From an uncultured delta proteobacterium (GTDB lineage: Bacteria; Desulfobacterota; BSN033; UBA1163): a stretch of DNA of 40,000 nucleotides. Numbering within the stretch: the first letter of the stretch is position 1; each line of letters opens with the position of its first letter. This document shows, in pieces, positions 1 through 39,135 of the stretch. The notes under the pieces were generated by a model. The model saw only the letters and a program-made list of their open reading frames with translations, made no database searches and was not told the origin of the DNA. Location of the stretch: positions 123,030-163,029 of the forward strand of contig CAWGWZ010000004.1 in assembly GCA_963826305.1 (NCBI GenBank), given 5' to 3'. The position numbers and the translations under genes were made by a program.

Positions 1-701
1 GTGGCAAATAAGGCCACCTCTGGATCATTTGTGGTGATAGCTCCTCCGTCTCCGTATCCCCCCAGGATTTTGAAGGGATAAAAGCTCCAGCATCCGGTCA
101 ATCCCCAAGCCCCTGCCTTCTTCCTCCCTCCTTCCCCGCTTTGAGCTTTCAGCCTTGAGCTTTCAGCTATCATGCTTGACCCTAAGCTCTGGCAGGCATC
201 CTCAACCACTACCAGGTTATATTTCTGGGCAATCTCCATGACCCGGACCATATCGGCGATGTAACCGTTGAGATGAACCGGCATAATTCCTTTGATTGCG
301 GATTTTCGATTGCGGATTGCGGATTCTAAAACCTCTTCGACTTTATTGGGATCAATGTTGAAATCTTTGCCCACATCTACGAGGACTGGCCTTGCCCCCG
401 CATTCACAATGGCTGAGGCCGAGGCCACAAATGTGTGCGCGGGTACGATTACTTCATCGCCTGGGCCAATCCCTGCGGCACGGAGCGAAAGGTGTAGCGC
501 ATCATAACCGCTATTTAAACCTACAGCATATTTTGTTCCGACAAAAGCGGCCAGATTCTCTTCAAACCGCTTCAACTGCGCCCTATCGATCAAATCGCCT
601 TTTTCCATTACCTCAAAATACGCCGCATCAAGCTCTTCTTTTATCATCTCATAGCTTCTTGACGGATTAACGAAGGGTACTTTATAGGTCAATGTTCTCA
701 C
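1..701 (-). CDS. DegT/DnrJ/EryC1/StrS-family PLP-dependent sugar aminotransferase, N-terminal ~230 codons (3' end runs off the left edge)
   Basis: Absent from the ORF track because there is no stop in the window. Hand translation of the minus strand is open from GTG 701 (or TTG 692) to base 1: VPFVNPSRSYEMIKEELDAAYFEVMEKGDLI..GLNSGYDALHLSLRAAGIGPGDEVIVPAHTFVASASAIVNAGARPVLVDV..MPVHLNG..VVEDACQSLG..CWSFYPFKILGGYGDGGAITTND. This is the family signature, including the YPxK lysine. The start overlaps the stop of 682..1632. Confidence 0.85.
   Translation of the reverse strand, partial: MRTLTYKVPFVNPSRSYEMIKEELDAAYFEVMEKGDLIDRAQLKRFEENLAAFVGTKYAVGLNSGYDALHLSLRAAGIGPGDEVIVPAHTFVASASAIVNAGARPVLVDVGKDFNIDPNKVEEVLESAIRNRKSAIKGIMPVHLNGYIADMVRVMEIAQKYNLVVVEDACQSLGSSMIAESSRLKAQSGEGGRKKAGAWGLTGCWSFYPFKILGGYGDGGAITTNDPEVALFA
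138..168. repeat. Heptamer array (AGCTSAA family) inside the DegT CDS
   Basis: GCTTTGA GCTTTCA GCCTTGA GCTTTCA GCT on the plus strand. Translated in frame as ..IAESSRLKAQS... Confidence 0.9.
294..328. repeat. Heptamer array (GATTGCG family) inside the DegT CDS
   Basis: GATTGCG GATTTTC GATTGCG GATTGCG GATTCTA. Translated in frame as ..LESAIRNRKSAIK... Confidence 0.9.
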
Positions 702-22975: not shown

Positions 22976-23104
22976 CAGATCCTTAGGATCGTTGATACCG
23001 TTGGAAGAAGCTGAAAGCACAAAGCAGCTTAGTCAATGAGTCATTCAGTTATTAGGTCATTGGGTCAACTATAAGCTCAAAGTTCAAAGCTGAATGCTCA
23101 AAGG
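22976..23104. repeat. Composite short-tandem-repeat block (9-mers ..CGTT, 8-mers GTCATTGR, 7-mers AGCTSAA)
   Basis: ..cagatccttaggatcgttgataccgttggaagaagctgaaagc..agtcaatgagtcattcag..ggtcattgggtcaac..agctcaaagttcaaagctgaatgctcaaagg. Confidence 0.85.
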
Positions 23105-24686: not shown

Positions 24687-24775
24687 CAGATCGGTAATAC
24701 CGTTGGAAGAAGCTGAAAGCTCAAAGCTGAAAGCGTTGATCGTAAAGAACGTTTGGATCGTTAACAACCTCTATA
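24687..24775. repeat. Composite 9-mer/7-mer block
   Basis: cagatcggtaataccgttggaagaagctgaaagctcaaagctgaaagcgttgatcgtaaagaacgtttggatcgttaac. Confidence 0.85.
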
Positions 24776-25415: not shown

Positions 25416-25589
25416 TTCTTTCCGTTGAGAGCGTTGGCCATAAGCTCGAAGCTGAAAGCTCAAAGGTGAGACTTCAAACCCTTTCAAAATCGTTTTGATC
25501 TATACCTCATTGCTTTAGCATTCCCCTAATCGTCCCTTGTTTAAGATCCTTGTTTCCTTAGTCAGGAATTACACTCCCTCTTCCTGTCA

Positions 25590-27313: not shown

Positions 27314-27413
27314 TGGATCGCTAATACCGTTGGAAGAAACTGAAAGCATAAAGCTGAAAGCTCAAAGTGGATTAATAAAGAATGGTTGCTTAGCTCAGAC
27401 ACCTGAGTACAAC

Positions 27414-28152: not shown

Positions 28153-28239
28153 GTAGAGTAGAGAACTGGCGTAGTGGCTAACGCTCTATCTCCAGCTCCC
28201 CCTCGTCAAACCGTACGTTCAGTTTTCCCGAATACGGCT
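28153..28239 (-). ncRNA. Group II intron domains V and VI (ribozyme catalytic core and branch-site helix)
   Basis: On the minus strand, AAGCCGUAUUCGGGAAAACUGAACGUACGGUUU has the AGC triad, a 2-nt bulge and a GAAA-type loop. It is followed by GAGGGGGAGCUGG...CCAGUUCUCUACUCUAC, which forms a stem with a bulged A. Confidence 0.8.
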
Positions 28240-28245
28240 TTCCGA

Positions 28246-29574
28246 TCATCTTCGTACAGAGGCTTTCGCAGTCTGAGTCCATGGAGCAGTGGTTGGCACC
28301 TTGTAAAGATGCAGATTGTCGTAGAGGTACTGATTTGGATACTGACAATAGCCTCTGTTTTTCTTCGCCTGCTTCCGTCTCAGATAGATGCGGACTCTCT
28401 CTTCCAGAAACCGTTTGACCATGGACAGGTTCCGGCTACAGTTCCCATAGTAAAAGTAACCGACCCATCCCCTTACTGCCTCATTCAATTTCTGGATGAT
28501 CACCTCTTTAGGTAACCTAAGTGTTCTCCGACAGGTTAAAGCCTTTATCTCCGCCTGGATCTGCGCCATGGCTTTCTTTGAGGGCCTGATCAAAGGAAAC
28601 TTCTTCCCTGTCCTGGGACTCTTTGCCATTTCCACGGTGAATCCAAGGAAGTCAAACCGCTCCCTCCAGGTGTTCACCACTCTCGTCTTTTCCTCATTTA
28701 GGTTTAGTCCCAGTTTTCCCAATGTGGCTCCGGTCCCCTTCAAGATCCTCTCGGCGTTTCCGCGACACATCACCACGAAATCGTCTGCGTACCGAATCAG
28801 TCTGGCCTCCATCCTCTCCTCAACCTTCTTCGCCTTCCATAATTTGTCCAGTACGTTAAGATAGATGTTGGCCAGCAGCGGTGATATCACTCCTCCCTGC
28901 GGGGTCCCCCTTGGATTCCCTATGGCTCTACTCTTCCCATCCTCTCCCTCTTCGACCACTGGCGCCTTCAACCACCGCTTGATGAGCCGAAGGATATGCT
29001 TGTCCACGACCCGCTTGGCCACTAACGCCAGTAGCTTATCGTGAGGAATGGTATCAAAATATTTCGAGATGTCAGCATCGATTACCTGATTCTTCCCCAT
29101 GCGAAGCTGTAAGGTAAGGTCATCCATCGCCTGATGGGCATCCCGCTTCGGCCTAAACCCATAGGAATTGTCCTCAAAGTCCGCCTCAAAGATCGGTTCG
29201 ATGACGATCTTCACCGCCATCTGCACCACCCGATCCTTAATCGTCGGTATTCCCAAGGGCCTTCGGCTTCCATCCGACTTCGGAATGTTCACCCTCCTCA
29301 CAGGCATCGGCTTATACACCTTCCCCCTTAGTTCCTCTGCCATCTGTTCAAGGTATCTTTCCACTCCCCCTTGTCTCTTCTCTATGCCTTCAAAGCTCTC
29401 CCCGTCTACTCCCGGTGCTCCTTTGTTGGCTCTCACAAGGCGATAAGCGTGACTCAGGATGTCTCGCCGATATACCTTGTCATAGAGAAGATAGAACCGG
29501 TATTCCTTCTCTTGCTTGGCCTTCCGGTATAGTCTCCTCTGAAGTTCCCGAACCTTTTCTGGAGTTTCAAGCAT
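28246..29574 (-). CDS. Group II intron reverse transcriptase/maturase (no D/En domain)
   Basis: 442 aa with [65 protein letters not shown] (YADD), and maturase X region [11 protein letters not shown]. Confidence 0.95.
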
Positions 29575-30087
29575 CCCGCAATCTCCTGGCCCTCCCCTCT
29601 TCAGAAACTGATGAAAGTATTGCCCCTTCCCTCTCCTAAGGTTCTGCTCTCCTTAGGATTCAAACGGTACTCCGGGCAACTCCGACTCCCTCACAGACCG
29701 AGTGAAATTTCGTCTCCTTATATCCACCCGTTGCTCTCCTGTATAGCATCTGAAAGGGCCTCCCGTGCTATCCCACATGACTTCCCCTGCGTGTCACCCC
29801 TGCTACCCCGGAAGTCCATCTGTCGGTTCTGGCAGTTTTCGTTAGGACAGATGTCCCAGCCTTCCCCAAACGTCCAAAGGGTCGGCAACTTCGTTCTCAA
29901 TTACGAGGCTACCTATAGGTTCGCTTGCGCTGCAACCCGCAGGATTGCTCAACTCACTCATTGAGCCTTCGTCAGGGAACTCAATGCTTCGGGTTACCCC
30001 TAACATCTCCCTCCAGCTACATGGGCGAACTGCCCAATTCCCATGGCCGGACTTTAACCGGCAAGTCATGCGTTGTACACGGCATAC

Positions 30088-31850: not shown

Positions 31851-32062
31851 CGTTTGAACCGTTAAGAGCGTTCAGGTCGTTTGGAACAAGCTGAAAGTTC
31901 AAAGCTCAAGGCTCAAAGGGGATTAAGGAAATCTGGGAGACCTTGTTGAATTCTTTCGCTATTTTCTTCCTGTTAGAGCCGTTGAGTTCGTTCAGACCCC
32001 TAATACCGTTGGGATCGTTGAGAACGCTAACCGTTTAGGTCGTTCGGATCGGTGCTCGTTAA
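31851..32062. repeat. Composite 9-mer/7-mer blocks flanking a Box B copy
   Basis: cgtttgaaccgttaagagcgttcaggtcgtttggaacaagctgaaagttcaaagctcaaggctcaaagg ... gttagagccgttgagttcgttcagacccctaataccgttgggatcgttgagaacgctaaccgtttaggtcgttcggatcgg. Confidence 0.85.
31933..31966. repeat. Box B copy (diverged)
   Basis: CTGGGAGACCTTGTTGAATTCTTTCGCTATTTTC, between the fcl stop and the first TA cassette. Confidence 0.6.
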
Positions 32063-33555: not shown

Positions 33556-34680
<1,125 letters not shown>

Positions 34681-34693
34681 ATCAAAACCTCTC

Positions 34694-34890
34694 GGTAATT
34701 GGTAATTAAGTTATTGGGCCATTGGGTCAACTATAAGCTCAAAGCTGAAGGCTCAAGGCTGAAGTTCGGGGCTGAAGGCTCAAAGCGAATAAAACAGTCA
34801 TTAGATCAATAGGTCATTGGGTCAATCGTAGCTCAAGGCTCAAAGCTGAAAGCTCGAAGCTCAAAGTGTAAATGGTCATTGAGTCATTGC
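34694..34890. repeat. About 200-bp spacer made almost entirely of 8-mers (GTCATTGR) and 7-mers (AGCTSAA/GGCTSAA)
   Basis: ggtaattggtaattaagttattgggccattgggtcaactataagctcaaagctgaaggctcaaggctgaag..ggtcattgggtcaatcgtagctcaaggctcaaagctgaaagctcgaagctcaaag..ggtcattgagtcattgc. Confidence 0.9.
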
Positions 34891-36311: not shown

Positions 36312-36467
36312 GTCATTGAGTCATTGAGTCAATAACAAGCTCAAAGTAAATTAAGCTCAAAGCTGAAAGCTCAAAGCAAAACCCTAAACATAGCTGAAAG
36401 GTCAAAGCTCAAAGCAAAGCGATAAATCCTCAGCTCAAAGCTGAAAGCTAACGAGTCATTGAGTTCA
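36312..36467. repeat. 8-mer/7-mer composite block
   Basis: gtcattgagtcattgagtcaataacaagctcaaag..agctcaaagctgaaagctcaaagc..tagctgaaaggtcaaagctcaaagcaaagc..cagctcaaagctgaaagcta..gtcattgag. Confidence 0.85.
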
Positions 36468-36740: not shown

Positions 36741-37251
36741 TCAGGCTGCCTTTTTGATCTGCCACTGTGATATCTGGACAGGAACATCCACACCGATCAG
36801 ACTCAGTAGAATCCTGACTCGTCCACTATCCGACATCTTCTTATGAAAAATCCCCACTAGATCCTTCGAGGGACCAGAGGTGATCTGAATCAGATCACCC
36901 TCTTTCCAGTCCTCTTCCAGCTTTATAAGGTTACCCGTTCCCACTCTCTCCCTGATCGCCCCCGACCACTCTTTCAGAAATAGAAACCGGCCCATCTCCC
37001 GCTCCGAGAATTTTACTCACCCCCCTTGTCCACTTCACCTTATCGTAATGAAATTTAATGTCGAGCCTGGCAAAGAGATAGTTTGGAAAGAAGGGTTTAA
37101 TTCTCTGAACCATCTTTCCCTTAGACACTGATAGGTCTGGATCAGCGGAAGAAGGTTTCAATCTCCTGGTTAAAAAGATGGGATTCAACACGATGTTCAT
37201 CCCCTGCCTTGGTCTGGACAACATACCAATCTCTTGAGTTGATTTCGTCAA
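36741..37251 (-). pseudogene. NusG/RfaH-like transcription antiterminator paralog, at least 3 frameshifts
   Basis: The pieces lie in three frames: WYVVQTKAGDEHRVESHLFNQEIETFF (alt frame about 37150-37230), then KGKMVQRIKPFFPNYLFARLD..WTRGVSKILG, then the KOW part AIRERVG..WKEGDLIQITSGPSKDLVGIFHKKMSDSGRVRILLSLIG. One break is at the C5 run 36959-36963. Confidence 0.75.
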
Positions 37252-37261
37252 TAACGTTCAG

Positions 37262-37378
37262 TTAGTTCGGGTGGTTCATTAAGTTACGATCGTTTATTCC
37301 TTTTTCTAAGTCTCTTCGGTTTCTCTGGTCCATTTGGGTTGTCTGGTTTCTCCCGCTTCTTTCGTCCGTTTCGTTCCT
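37262..37378. repeat. Nonamer array forming the 3' tail of the ligase-like pseudogene
   Basis: ..cggtttctc tggtccatt tgggttgtc tggtttctc ccgcttctt tcgtccgtt tcgttcc... Read as the charged tail ..KERNGRKKREKPDNPNGPEKPKR... Confidence 0.75.
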
Positions 37379-38393
37379 TGGATGGATATGGCACCGGCCG
37401 TCGCCAAGAGAAAGGTGAAGAGAAAGGCGTTGGCAGGGACCTGTATGTTCCTCTCCACAATGCTATGAAACAACAGTGCCAGAATCCCCACCAGACAACC
37501 CATCCCGATATATCTTCTGGCTCTCTGGAGGAAAGGGAACGAATCCCAGAAACTCCCTTATAAAAGAGAATCAAGAAGAAAATCAAGAGCAAGCCTATGC
37601 CGATGATTCCAACGTCAGAAGCGAGCTGGAGAAAATCATTCTCTGCATGGGTCACCATCCCGTGTATGTGAAAAGACCGATACATCGGAAAGATCTGAGC
37701 GAAGGTTCCAAGGCCTGACCCAAAAAGAGGGAAGTCCTTGAAGATCTGGAAAGTGCTGACCCAGATCTTCCATCTCTCTTCGAAACCTTCCGAGAGACTG
37801 AAGAAACGGCTGATCACCGCATCGAGCCAAATCCATGCTGCCCAGAGCAGGGCTAAACCGAAGAGCAAAACCGAGGTTTTAGAAAATCTCTTTTCCCTCC
37901 GGGGATTACCTGTAAAGGAGGCTGATCAGACTGAATGAGAGGAGGAGGCTCATGATTCCCATTCTCGATGCCGAGAGAAGAAGAGCAAGGATCATCACAA
38001 CGATACCAAAGGCGATCAGAAGGGCCTTTCCGTCAAAGACCAAATCGCCAACACCTAAACCGACTTTTTTGAAAGCCCTCACGTGAAAAGAGGAAGCCCA
38101 TACTTAAAGGAATGACCATAGAGGAGGTAACCTGCAAAGTAGTTACGGTTGATGAAGGTTCCGGTGACCGAGGACACAAGGGATGATACATCAAGGTTCA
38201 GAATATGGCGATGCCCGCTGAAGAATTAGAACATGCCATAAAGGGATTCGGCGATACCGACCAGCATCACAACAGGAACCAGGTGGTGCATGTCCCTCCG
38301 ATCAGAAGGTCTCCAATTTAAAAGAAAGAGGAAGAATCCCGAGAGGGCAAACCATTTGAAGAATTCGATCCGGGTGGCAAAGGGAAAGAGAGA

Positions 38394-38430
38394 AAGCTGA
38401 AAGGTCAAAGGTGAAAGGTCAAAGGTCAAG
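38394..38430. repeat. Heptamer array inside the ligase-like pseudogene
   Basis: agctgaa aggtcaa aggtgaa aggtcaa aggtcaa gg, read in gene sense as ..LTFDLSPLTFQLSL... Confidence 0.85.
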
Positions 38431-38547
38431 GAATCCCGCAAGGTAAAAGTCTTTGGGGAAATGATCTTAACAACGCCTGATGGAAGAGGGATCATCTGAA
38501 ATAGAACAAGAAGAAGAAAAAGGGAGAGAAGAATAAAGCAAATGGAG

Positions 38548-38680
38548 AGTTCGAAGTTCGAAGTTCGGAGTTTAAACTTCTTGCGGAATGCGGCCGCCTA
38601 CGCTCGGAGAGCTTCGGCGGCCAAGGATTGCGCTCGCCCTCCGAAGCTTTAGCGCAGGAGGGGAATGCGGATTGCGGAGG
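38548..38680. repeat. About 130-bp repeat-derived insertion in the ligase-like pseudogene (GTTCGAA and GATTGCG heptads flanking an imperfect ~15-bp inverted repeat)
   Basis: gttcgaagttcgaagttcggag .. cggagagcttcggcgg / cctccgaagctttagcg .. gaatgcggattgcggagg. Translated through as ..PPQSAFPSCAKASEGERNPWPPKLSERRRPHSARSLNSELRTSNS... Confidence 0.7.
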
Positions 38681-38830
38681 TAAGACTGACTTCTGGATGG
38701 TCCAGAGGATGATCATTAAAAGGATGCCCAGTTCCATCACGGAGAAGGCCCAGAGATCGGCCGCCCCGAAGACGATGGGAGTGAAGGCAAGGAGAAAGAT
38801 AAGGATAAATTTTATGAAATCGTTAATCAT

Positions 38831-39135
38831 AGTTGAAAGCTCAAAGTTGAAAGCTCAAAGCAAATACCGCTAATCATAGCTGAAAACTCAAAGCAAATAC
38901 CGCTAACCATAGCTGAAAGCTCAAAGCTGAAAGCTCAAAGTTCAAAGCTCAAAGCAAATACCGCTAACCATAGCTGAAAACTCAAAGCTGAAAGCTCAAA
39001 GCAAATACCGCTAACCATAGCTGAAAACTCAAAGCGAAAGAACACAATAAATAATAGCTCAAACTTCAAACCCCAAAGCAAAACAAAAAAATAAAAACCC
39101 AAAGTTCAAAACAAAAGATAAAAAAGCTCAAAACA
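38831..39135. repeat. Higher-order tandem array: 18-nt anchor GCAAATACCGCTAAYCAT x4 separated by variable numbers of AGCTSAA heptamers, decaying into A-rich CAAA repeats
   Basis: Anchors start at 38860, 38893, 38954 and 39001. The spacings of 33, 61 and 47 nt differ by multiples of 7. Confidence 0.9.

Follow-up and report, generated by a model that had tools for sequence, protein, structure and literature searches.

Heptanucleotide repeat arrays at two sites in a DegT-family sugar aminotransferase gene of an uncultured delta proteobacterium

The DegT gene and its two repeat arrays

We investigated two arrays of tandem heptanucleotides (heptamers) that lie inside a gene for a DegT/DnrJ/EryC1/StrS sugar aminotransferase (hereafter, DegT) of an uncultured delta proteobacterium (GenBank assembly GCA_963826305.1). 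The window, i.e., the whole stretch of DNA analyzed, comprises 40,000 nucleotides (nt) of contig CAWGWZ010000004.1 (positions 123,030 to 163,029, forward strand). The DegT gene occupies positions 1..692 on the minus strand and was recognized by its open frame, its match to PF01041, and its relatives in the PDB (7b0d, 3frk, and 2oga). It is cut by the left edge of the window, which retains its first 230 codons; the complete protein has 389 amino acids (aa), and a 100% identical full-length sequence in a public protein collection (P0001) carries PF01041. The TTG at 692-690 is the probable start, as judged from the translation, and gives MTYKVPFVNP, which fits the homologue consensus MxYKVxFVxP. 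The genes upstream are a split transketolase and methyltransferases, and the repetition of the gene order beside orthologues indicates a surface-sugar biosynthesis cluster.

Profile match, catalytic residues, and a fold-type I aminotransferase structure all place the protein in the DegT/DnrJ/EryC1/StrS family. Searches with phmmer gave E = 2e-74 against 7b0d and 3e-64 against QdtB (3frk). Residues K193, D150, and Q153 are invariant across 110 homologues and are all present in the window DegT, in which the Schiff-base lysine motif SFYPFK (SFxPxK) and the pyridoxal phosphate-binding aspartate of EDA are kept. An AlphaFold2 model built from the alignment of 110 homologues had a predicted local distance difference test score (pLDDT) of 82.7 and a predicted template modeling score of 0.85, and Foldseek aligned it to DesV, QdtB, 7b0d, and WbpE with template modeling scores of 0.83-0.86. 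A 40-sequence alignment gave an unusable model (pLDDT 50).

The first array (site 1; 294..326, minus strand) was identified by Tandem Repeats Finder (TRF; 294-325, GATTGCG ×4.6), by translation, and by comparison with orthologues. It reads GATTGCG GATTTTC GATTGCG GATTGCG GATTC on the plus strand, i.e., (TCCGCAA)n in the coding sense (TCCGCAA TCCGCAA TCGAAAA TCCGCAA TC), and is translated as SAIRNRKSAI. The second (site 2), identified by TRF and an orthologue gap, is a 42-nt block at 129..170 on the same strand, encoding the peptide IAESSRLKAQSGEG, with a heptamer core at 138-170; its coding sense, AGCTGAA AGCTCAA GGCTGAA AGCTCAA AGC, is translated as AESSRLKAQS. TRF reported a period-7 array here at 138-177/179 and an exact 14-mer, TTGAGCTTTCAGCC, ×1.9 at 141-167. 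Both are therefore tandem arrays of a 7-nt unit with at least three copies (TRF, 138-179 and 294-325), and perfect four-unit versions exist in orthologues. Taken alone, the site-1 array is weak (19/28 lag-7 matches); however, exactly the same position in an orthologue (L082) is occupied by four perfect copies of TCCGCAA, which argues that the window array is genuine, with one unit decayed. An independent Logan assembly (L001; run ERR10755944) was 100% identical over 2005 nt, both arrays included, so that an assembler artefact is excluded and the arrays can be taken as real.

The initial annotation described the DegT frame as open through both arrays, and indeed the frame contains no stop in 1-701 (minus strand), with both alternative frames being stop-rich; the array segments translate as ..LESAIRNRKSAIKGIMPVH.. 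and ..EDACQSLGSSMIAESSRLKAQSGEGGRKKAGAWGL.. in this frame. We set the limits of the inserts by conserved anchors (DFNxD...PVH for site 1 and EDxCQxxG...GxWGL for site 2). The window protein has 23 and 22 residues from anchor to anchor, compared with 16 and 8 in insert-free orthologues (e.g., EEAITPRTRGIM at site 1 and AQVLGKKA at site 2 in the 368-aa proteins P0029, P0061, P0065, P0075, and P0082). Site 1 thus carries exactly three additional heptads (21 nt, +7 aa) and site 2 exactly six (42 nt, +14 aa), which accounts for the length of the protein (389 = 368 + 7 + 14). HMMER alignment to the structures 7b0d and 3frk likewise opened a 7-residue gap at the first position and a 14-residue gap at the second, making exact the sizes first estimated by eye (about 7 aa, or three heptads, and 14-16 aa, or about six heptads). 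The 16/8-residue state was present in metagenome-assembled genomes (MAGs) of Nitrospirota, Bacteroidota, Acidobacteriota, Chloroflexota, Omnitrophota, and other phyla, and its spread over so many phyla marks it as ancestral.

In the model, the site-1 insert lengthens helix 100-111 at its C-terminal end together with the following loop (112-117), which precedes strand 118-121 toward PVH, and site 2 is a loop at the tip of a β-hairpin (strands 158-160 and 175-177; local pLDDT ~65), so the predicted structure agrees with the initial suggestion that the inserts form loops. The DNA of the arrays showed no unusual folding on either strand relative to shuffled sequences (z = −0.7 to +0.9). We had considered that AGCT palindromes make the arrays structure-prone and dropped this idea, because no array folded better than its shuffles. 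A scan against Rfam gave no match at the arrays, the sole match in the window being a group II intron.

Arrays at the same sites in homologues

The homologue set comprised ~120 proteins (63-100% identity). Internal length variation in this set was confined to sites 1 and 2, and gap runs in the 40-sequence alignment fell only at columns 124-133 and 180-214, besides the termini. The two positions that had been proposed to be length-variable are therefore the only internal ones in the family. Site 1 had states of +0, +3, +7, +8, and +10 aa, +7 being the commonest. At site 2, the 83-sequence set spanned +0 to +35 aa, a genome locus reached +72 aa, and P0012 had the longest array (43 aa). Lag-7 residue identity of the inserts was 0.17 and 0.19, compared with 0.05-0.08 at other lags and in the remaining protein, a 7-residue periodicity that is expected from heptanucleotide arrays read through all three phases.

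Where the DNA of orthologues was obtainable, we found heptamer arrays at both sites, with units that differed between genomes. A Syntrophaceae MAG (L002) has ATCAGGG at site 1 and GGAGTCA at site 2, and an uncultured Desulfobacterium (L003) has a TCGGCGG-like unit and CAGCAGT, respectively. At site 2, CAGGAGG and CAGAGAT occur in a member of Desulfatiglandales (L065), AGGCAAC in one of Syntrophales (L052), and GTGTTAA/GTGTCAG in L022. L086 carries ATTCAAA at site 1, four perfect copies of ATTCAAA plus GAGGTCA at site 2, and, in the intergenic DNA 12 nt before the start, a further ATTCAAA array. L084 has no array at site 1, a perfect (AAGCTCA)×4.4 array of +30 nt at site 2, and an intergenic AAGCTSA array. 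The loci with obvious arrays in DegT were those with the densest period-7 arrays in their flanks, and the units at the two sites recur in the flanking DNA of the respective genomes.

Two further observations concern the extent of such remodeling. In the Syntrophaceae orthologue L002, a third array (AGGAGTC, 2479-2511; cf. the C-terminus of P0005) overlaps the end of the gene and adds ~20 residues (LGVRSQNSGV...), which indicates that arrays remodel the C-terminus, too. In addition, the site-2 inserts of the GC-rich orthologues L013 (+72 aa) and P0069 (+62 aa) are very long, of low complexity, and without periodicity (e.g., ...RRRRKKLAKQSGDLFGEATGAVAIGAAAPKATVTG...), indicating that the hairpin tip accepts insertions far bigger than heptamer arrays.

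We mapped the states of both sites by Fitch parsimony onto a neighbor-joining tree of 83 tips, constructed from an alignment in which the inserts were masked. The presence of an insert required at least 10 changes at site 1 (mean of shuffled states, 24.5) and at least five at site 2 (20.1), and the length at site 2 required 43 changes. These counts indicate that the states are inherited and yet very labile. For example, outside the sites P0003, P0080, and P0005 share 94-95% identity, but site 2 holds +18 aa in the first, no insert in the second, and an unrelated +14 aa in the third. The lineage of the window behaves differently: its closest relative with available DNA, L082 (91% aa and 85% nt identity to the window DegT), has equal unit numbers and nearly identical arrays. 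Another relative, L083 (87% aa identity), has a decayed +7 at site 1 and no insert at site 2.

Dispersed heptamers in the window

An autocorrelation scan for period 7 detected 14 arrays in the window, compared with 0.15 in dinucleotide-type shuffles. Enrichment extended to periods 8, 9, and 14 but not to periods 4, 5, 10, 11, 13, and 15. The AAGCTSA dimer pattern AAGCTSAAAGCTSA (≤1 mismatch) had 36 matches in the window against 0.13 expected, which makes the site-2 array a member of the dominant dispersed heptamer family of the window. Intergenic AAGCTSA arrays on the plus strand were located at 23073..23101 (period-7 scan and pattern matches) and at 24707-24737, 25442-25469, 27340-27367, 31887-31919, 34731-34765, 34826-34867, and 36350-36382 (period-7 scan). 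A higher-order tandem repeat at 38824..39040 (plus strand; TRF and repeat search), with periods of 47/61 nt, combines AAGCTSA heptamers with a 19-nt spacer, GCAAATACCGCTAACCAT, and lies directly upstream of an O-antigen-ligase-like open reading frame (ORF). On the minus strand, each copy of this repeat terminates in ..TTTCAGCT-ATG, the last of these ATGs (38830) being the start codon of the ligase-like ORF.

The orientation of the family is strongly skewed. All 33 of the 33 intergenic AAGCTSA dimers were on the plus strand, and the three minus-strand matches all belonged to DegT. The homology-supported genes of the window are all on the minus strand, antisense to the intergenic matches. Read in the sense of the genes, the intergenic orientation (TSAGCTT) places TGA in every phase within a few units, and hence only the AAGCTSA orientation is codable. 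The phase AGC-TSA, moreover, needs S = C: in that phase, DegT has the C variant, and its site-2 array terminates where a further G variant would follow. The strand asymmetry suggests that the intergenic arrays have some strand-specific property in addition to the avoidance of stop codons.

Origin of the arrays

We consider it probable that dispersed heptanucleotide microsatellites colonized two permissive loops of DegT, were filtered by frame and stop phase, and have continued to expand, contract, or be homogenized within the family. The arrays would be copies of dispersed heptamers of the kind known as short tandemly repeated repetitive (STRR) elements or long simple sequence repeats (SSRs), fixed in two loops of a functional enzyme that tolerate insertions and deletions, and they would arise and alter through replication slippage or by exchanging sequence with further arrays in their genome. 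Frame-shifting variants and those with a stop codon in phase would be eliminated, so that the surviving arrays would code for hydrophilic peptides, in frame and in the orientation free of stops. For catalysis, the inserts are probably neutral or close to neutral. The arrays would now be stable in the window lineage, with turnover in the wider family much faster than that of the remaining protein.

Several observations weigh against this explanation, in whole or in part. Slippage was not observed directly, and the arrays have no unusual hairpin potential. Dispersal in the window holds for the site-2 unit but not for the site-1 unit (CGCAATC), since GATTGCG had only two dimer matches against 0.24 expected. 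Array lengths are equal in the window, the independent assembly, and L082, giving no sign of continued activity in this genome. Moreover, the arrays of the window and of L082 are identical at 57/60 nt, compared with 84.5% for the remaining gene, and at 19/20 third codon positions, compared with 64% elsewhere (Fisher p = 0.002). Such excess conservation is unlike that of a purely neutral insert and points to homogenization or to selection on DNA, RNA, or peptide. Finally, only 46 of 243 close pairs had site-2 length differences divisible by 7 aa, a weak enrichment over the ~35 expected (~1/7).

These results bear on two claims of the initial annotation. That intact genes carry only 21-nt multiples is correct for the window DegT (+21 and +42 nt) but not as a rule, given the +30-nt insert of L084 and the pairwise count above, and we therefore rejected multiples of 7 aa as a family-wide rule. 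An ORF that is intact must be in frame, which makes a frame filter trivial by itself; the filter is informative only where inserts consist purely of heptamer multiples. The claim of an active repeat expansion finds its counterpart in the rapid turnover across the family, whereas no length variability was seen in the window lineage (L001 and L082).

An alternative with some chance of being correct, albeit a small one, is that the inserts are old loop insertions maintained by selection on a peptide or on a nucleotide motif bound as RNA or DNA, with no active repeat process. The near-identity of the arrays in L082, at the same lengths and despite differences of 15% overall and 36% at third positions, speaks for this alternative, and the sharing of a SAIRNPQSAIK-type site-1 insert by many homologues at 78-91% identity and the wide distribution of a +6-aa state (DERTGE-like) at site 2 are consistent with it. 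Yet wholly different units occupy the same site at the same length (e.g., TCCGCAA and ATTCAAA), whole arrays are present or absent between 95%-identical proteins, and insert-free enzymes are the majority across phyla. The perfect arrays found in genes diverged by 15-25% (L082 at site 1; L084 and L086 at site 2) imply recent expansion or homogenization, not passive decay.

A sequence-directed, genome-wide process of homogenization or insertion (gene conversion among arrays, or an unknown enzyme), rewriting permissive loop sites with the active unit of each lineage, is distinctly unlikely in our estimation. If true, it would account for arrays that share site and length but differ in unit between genomes, for the sharing of units between coding and intergenic arrays within a genome, and for the high nucleotide conservation of the arrays. 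As a variant, the motif could be bound as RNA or DNA and selected inside the coding sequence.

Insertion of a mobile element, or targeted delivery or gene conversion from other arrays in place of local slippage, appears quite improbable. The two sites and nearby intergenic arrays do share a unit in several genomes (L086 and L002), and the intergenic regions are mosaics of 7-, 8-, and 9-mers on a conserved 35-nt head. Four-residue words were shared between the sites in 5/18 proteins, compared with 9% of cross pairs (permutation p ~0.025-0.05, with one clade dominant), but this statistic is weak and phylogenetically non-independent. In the window, sites 1 and 2 carry unlike units, and we found no recognizable element ends, target-site duplications, or associated enzyme.

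Contingency loci in the surface genes of Haemophilus, Neisseria, and Helicobacter contain tetra- to heptanucleotide SSRs as long, perfect tracts near the 5′ end, and slippage in DegT might likewise switch the gene, and hence a surface-sugar modification, on and off by frameshift, as in the lipopolysaccharide genes of Haemophilus and Neisseria. The likeness lies in non-triplet SSRs inside surface-polysaccharide genes: the unit length is no multiple of three, DegT belongs to a surface-polysaccharide cluster, and neighboring polysaccharide genes are broken. Nevertheless, such a switch is very improbable here. Contingency loci show length polymorphism among strains and reads, whereas the DegT arrays are short (four to six units), imperfect, in mid-gene, and two per gene, and have the same number of units in the independent assembly L001 and the diverged orthologue L082; the breaks in the neighboring genes are nonsense substitutions or frame changes outside the arrays. 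An assembly or sequencing artefact in low-complexity sequence, as might be suspected of a source that resembles a metagenome-assembled contig with several broken genes, has practically no probability in view of the identical Logan assembly and of homologous arrays in many unrelated assemblies.

Relation to known heptamer repeats

Intragenic heptamer arrays are already known from Geobacter, Beggiatoaceae, and cyanobacteria, and the arrays described here are no new kind of system. The cyanobacterial STRR heptamers, which Mazel et al. reportedly described in 1990, are lineage-specific tandem repeats that are dispersed and mostly intergenic, and an account by Vioque from 1997 is reported to place such heptamers inside the RNase P RNA gene of heterocystous cyanobacteria. 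DegT resembles this case in that heptamers are tolerated inside a functional gene at a structurally permissive position. However, RNase P is encoded by an RNA gene, which has no reading-frame filter, whereas DegT is a protein gene. The STRR units are CCCCAGT, TTGGTCA, and CAACAGT, and the window units, AAGCTSA and CGCAATC, do not belong to the cyanobacterial family in the strict sense. Hosts also differ, as the nearest named relatives of the window DegT are from Syntrophaceae, Desulfobacterium, and Desulfatiglandales MAGs, not heterocystous cyanobacteria.

The TAACTGA direct repeats of marine Beggiatoaceae are abundant, strand-specific, and for the most part intergenic, often lying a short way upstream of a start codon; they contain stops in all frames in one orientation, so that copies inside genes are confined to the opposite one and mostly fall where they are tolerated (PMC4679880). 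The AAGCTSA family matches this unit at 5/7 positions and shares its orientation logic and, at 38830, the abutment of heptamers on a start codon. In contrast, intragenic TAACTGA copies are found mainly at protein termini (PMC4679880), whereas the window copies are in mid-protein loops of a conserved enzyme. Neither does the window family belong to the TAACTGA system, as its unit differs and most of its intergenic arrays are 40-200 nt from the next start, only the ATG at 38830 being abutted.

The elements of Geobacter metallireducens, which consist of four heptanucleotides (consensus GGACCGG, 49 copies), have been read as regulatory RNA elements (PMC2700814). They resemble the present arrays, two of which lie in one gene with many copies in intergenic regions, but differ in their GC-rich unit and fixed four-unit format; for them, no comparison with insert-free orthologues and no recurrence at the same site across genomes were reported (PMC2700814). 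The GGGNATC/GGGGAYT heptamers of Xanthomonas and Nostoc occur genome-wide with variable unit numbers and are scarcer than expected within coding DNA; they form G-quadruplexes and prefer four copies (PMC4692102), whereas the window units are not G-rich and give no folding signal. More generally, heptamers are the most abundant class of longer SSR in many prokaryotes, according to Mrazek et al. (2007) as relayed by PMC4679880, and non-triplet SSR units are depleted in coding DNA, according to PMC4679880 and PMC4692102. Our literature search found no report of heptamer arrays in Syntrophus, Smithella, or Desulfobacterium.

What may be new is the documentation of two orthologous hot spots with lineage-specific units, as well as the contrast between rapid turnover across the family and strong conservation in the window lineage. 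If our explanation is correct, non-triplet microsatellites generate length variation in a conserved bacterial enzyme with a known ancestral state and inserts of exact 21-nt multiples, and insertion into, or rewriting of, these two loops has recurred throughout the DegT family. With one enzyme, two sites, and dozens of natural alleles, this is a tractable system that opens questions on how heptamer families spread and are homogenized, on coding constraint (frame, stop phase, and loop tolerance), and on possible function. On the practical side, heptamer inserts inflate apparent divergence and may mislead alignment, annotation, and structure prediction of proteins from Syntrophales- and Desulfobacterales-like MAGs.

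Neighboring genes and other repeats

The initial annotation pointed to arrays at 38394-38430 and 33791-33820 as showing the same pattern in other genes; the arrays exist, but their host genes are not intact. The first (38390..38434, minus strand; TRF and period-7 scan) consists of AAAGGTC/AAAGCTG on the plus strand, is read as LTFDLSPLTFQLSL, and is accompanied by a second heptamer array (AGTTCGA) at 38543-38579. Both lie in the O-antigen-ligase-like gene (37284-38830, minus strand), which consists of at least three ORF pieces with frame changes and matches Wzy_C only in 37287-37868; the frame change near 38495 is away from the arrays.

The other (CCTYAR in the coding sense; 33791..33822, minus strand) is the only period-6 array in the window and lies in gmd, encoding GDP-mannose 4,6-dehydratase (33556-34680, minus strand), where it falls in a profile gap. 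This gene has in-frame stops, TAA at 34342-34344 and TAG at 33844-33846, each at one conserved position and without a frameshift, and its pieces are collinear on the GDP_Man_Dehyd profile (1-108, 110-275, and 286-332). It is probably a young pseudogene, to judge by its sequence. An alternative genetic code was rejected as the reason for the stops, because TGA, TAA, and TAG all end other long ORFs. A NusG/RfaH-like gene (36741-37251, minus strand), split into two overlapping ORFs for the NusG N-terminal domain and a KOW-like tail, is the third broken gene of the polysaccharide region.

Between 22900 and 32100, a row of small ORFs on the same strand is interspersed with composite repeats. From their translations, the ORFs look like toxin-antitoxin-like pairs (PIN, HicA/HicB, RelE-like, and DUF433), and the layout superficially resembles a cassette array. 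The composite repeats begin with a conserved 35-nt head, ACCTTCAAAATTCAATTTCAATCGTTGGCAGCGTT (22941, 23731, 24652, and 27279), followed by CGTTGA-type 9-mer arrays and AAGCTSA heptamers. Arrays of an 8-mer (TCATTGRG) stand beside heptamers at 23035, 34697, 34784, and 36315. The group II intron (28153-30064, minus strand; RF02003 at 29925-30064, RF00029 at 28153-28242, and a reverse-transcriptase ORF at 28246-29574) sits within this small-ORF region.

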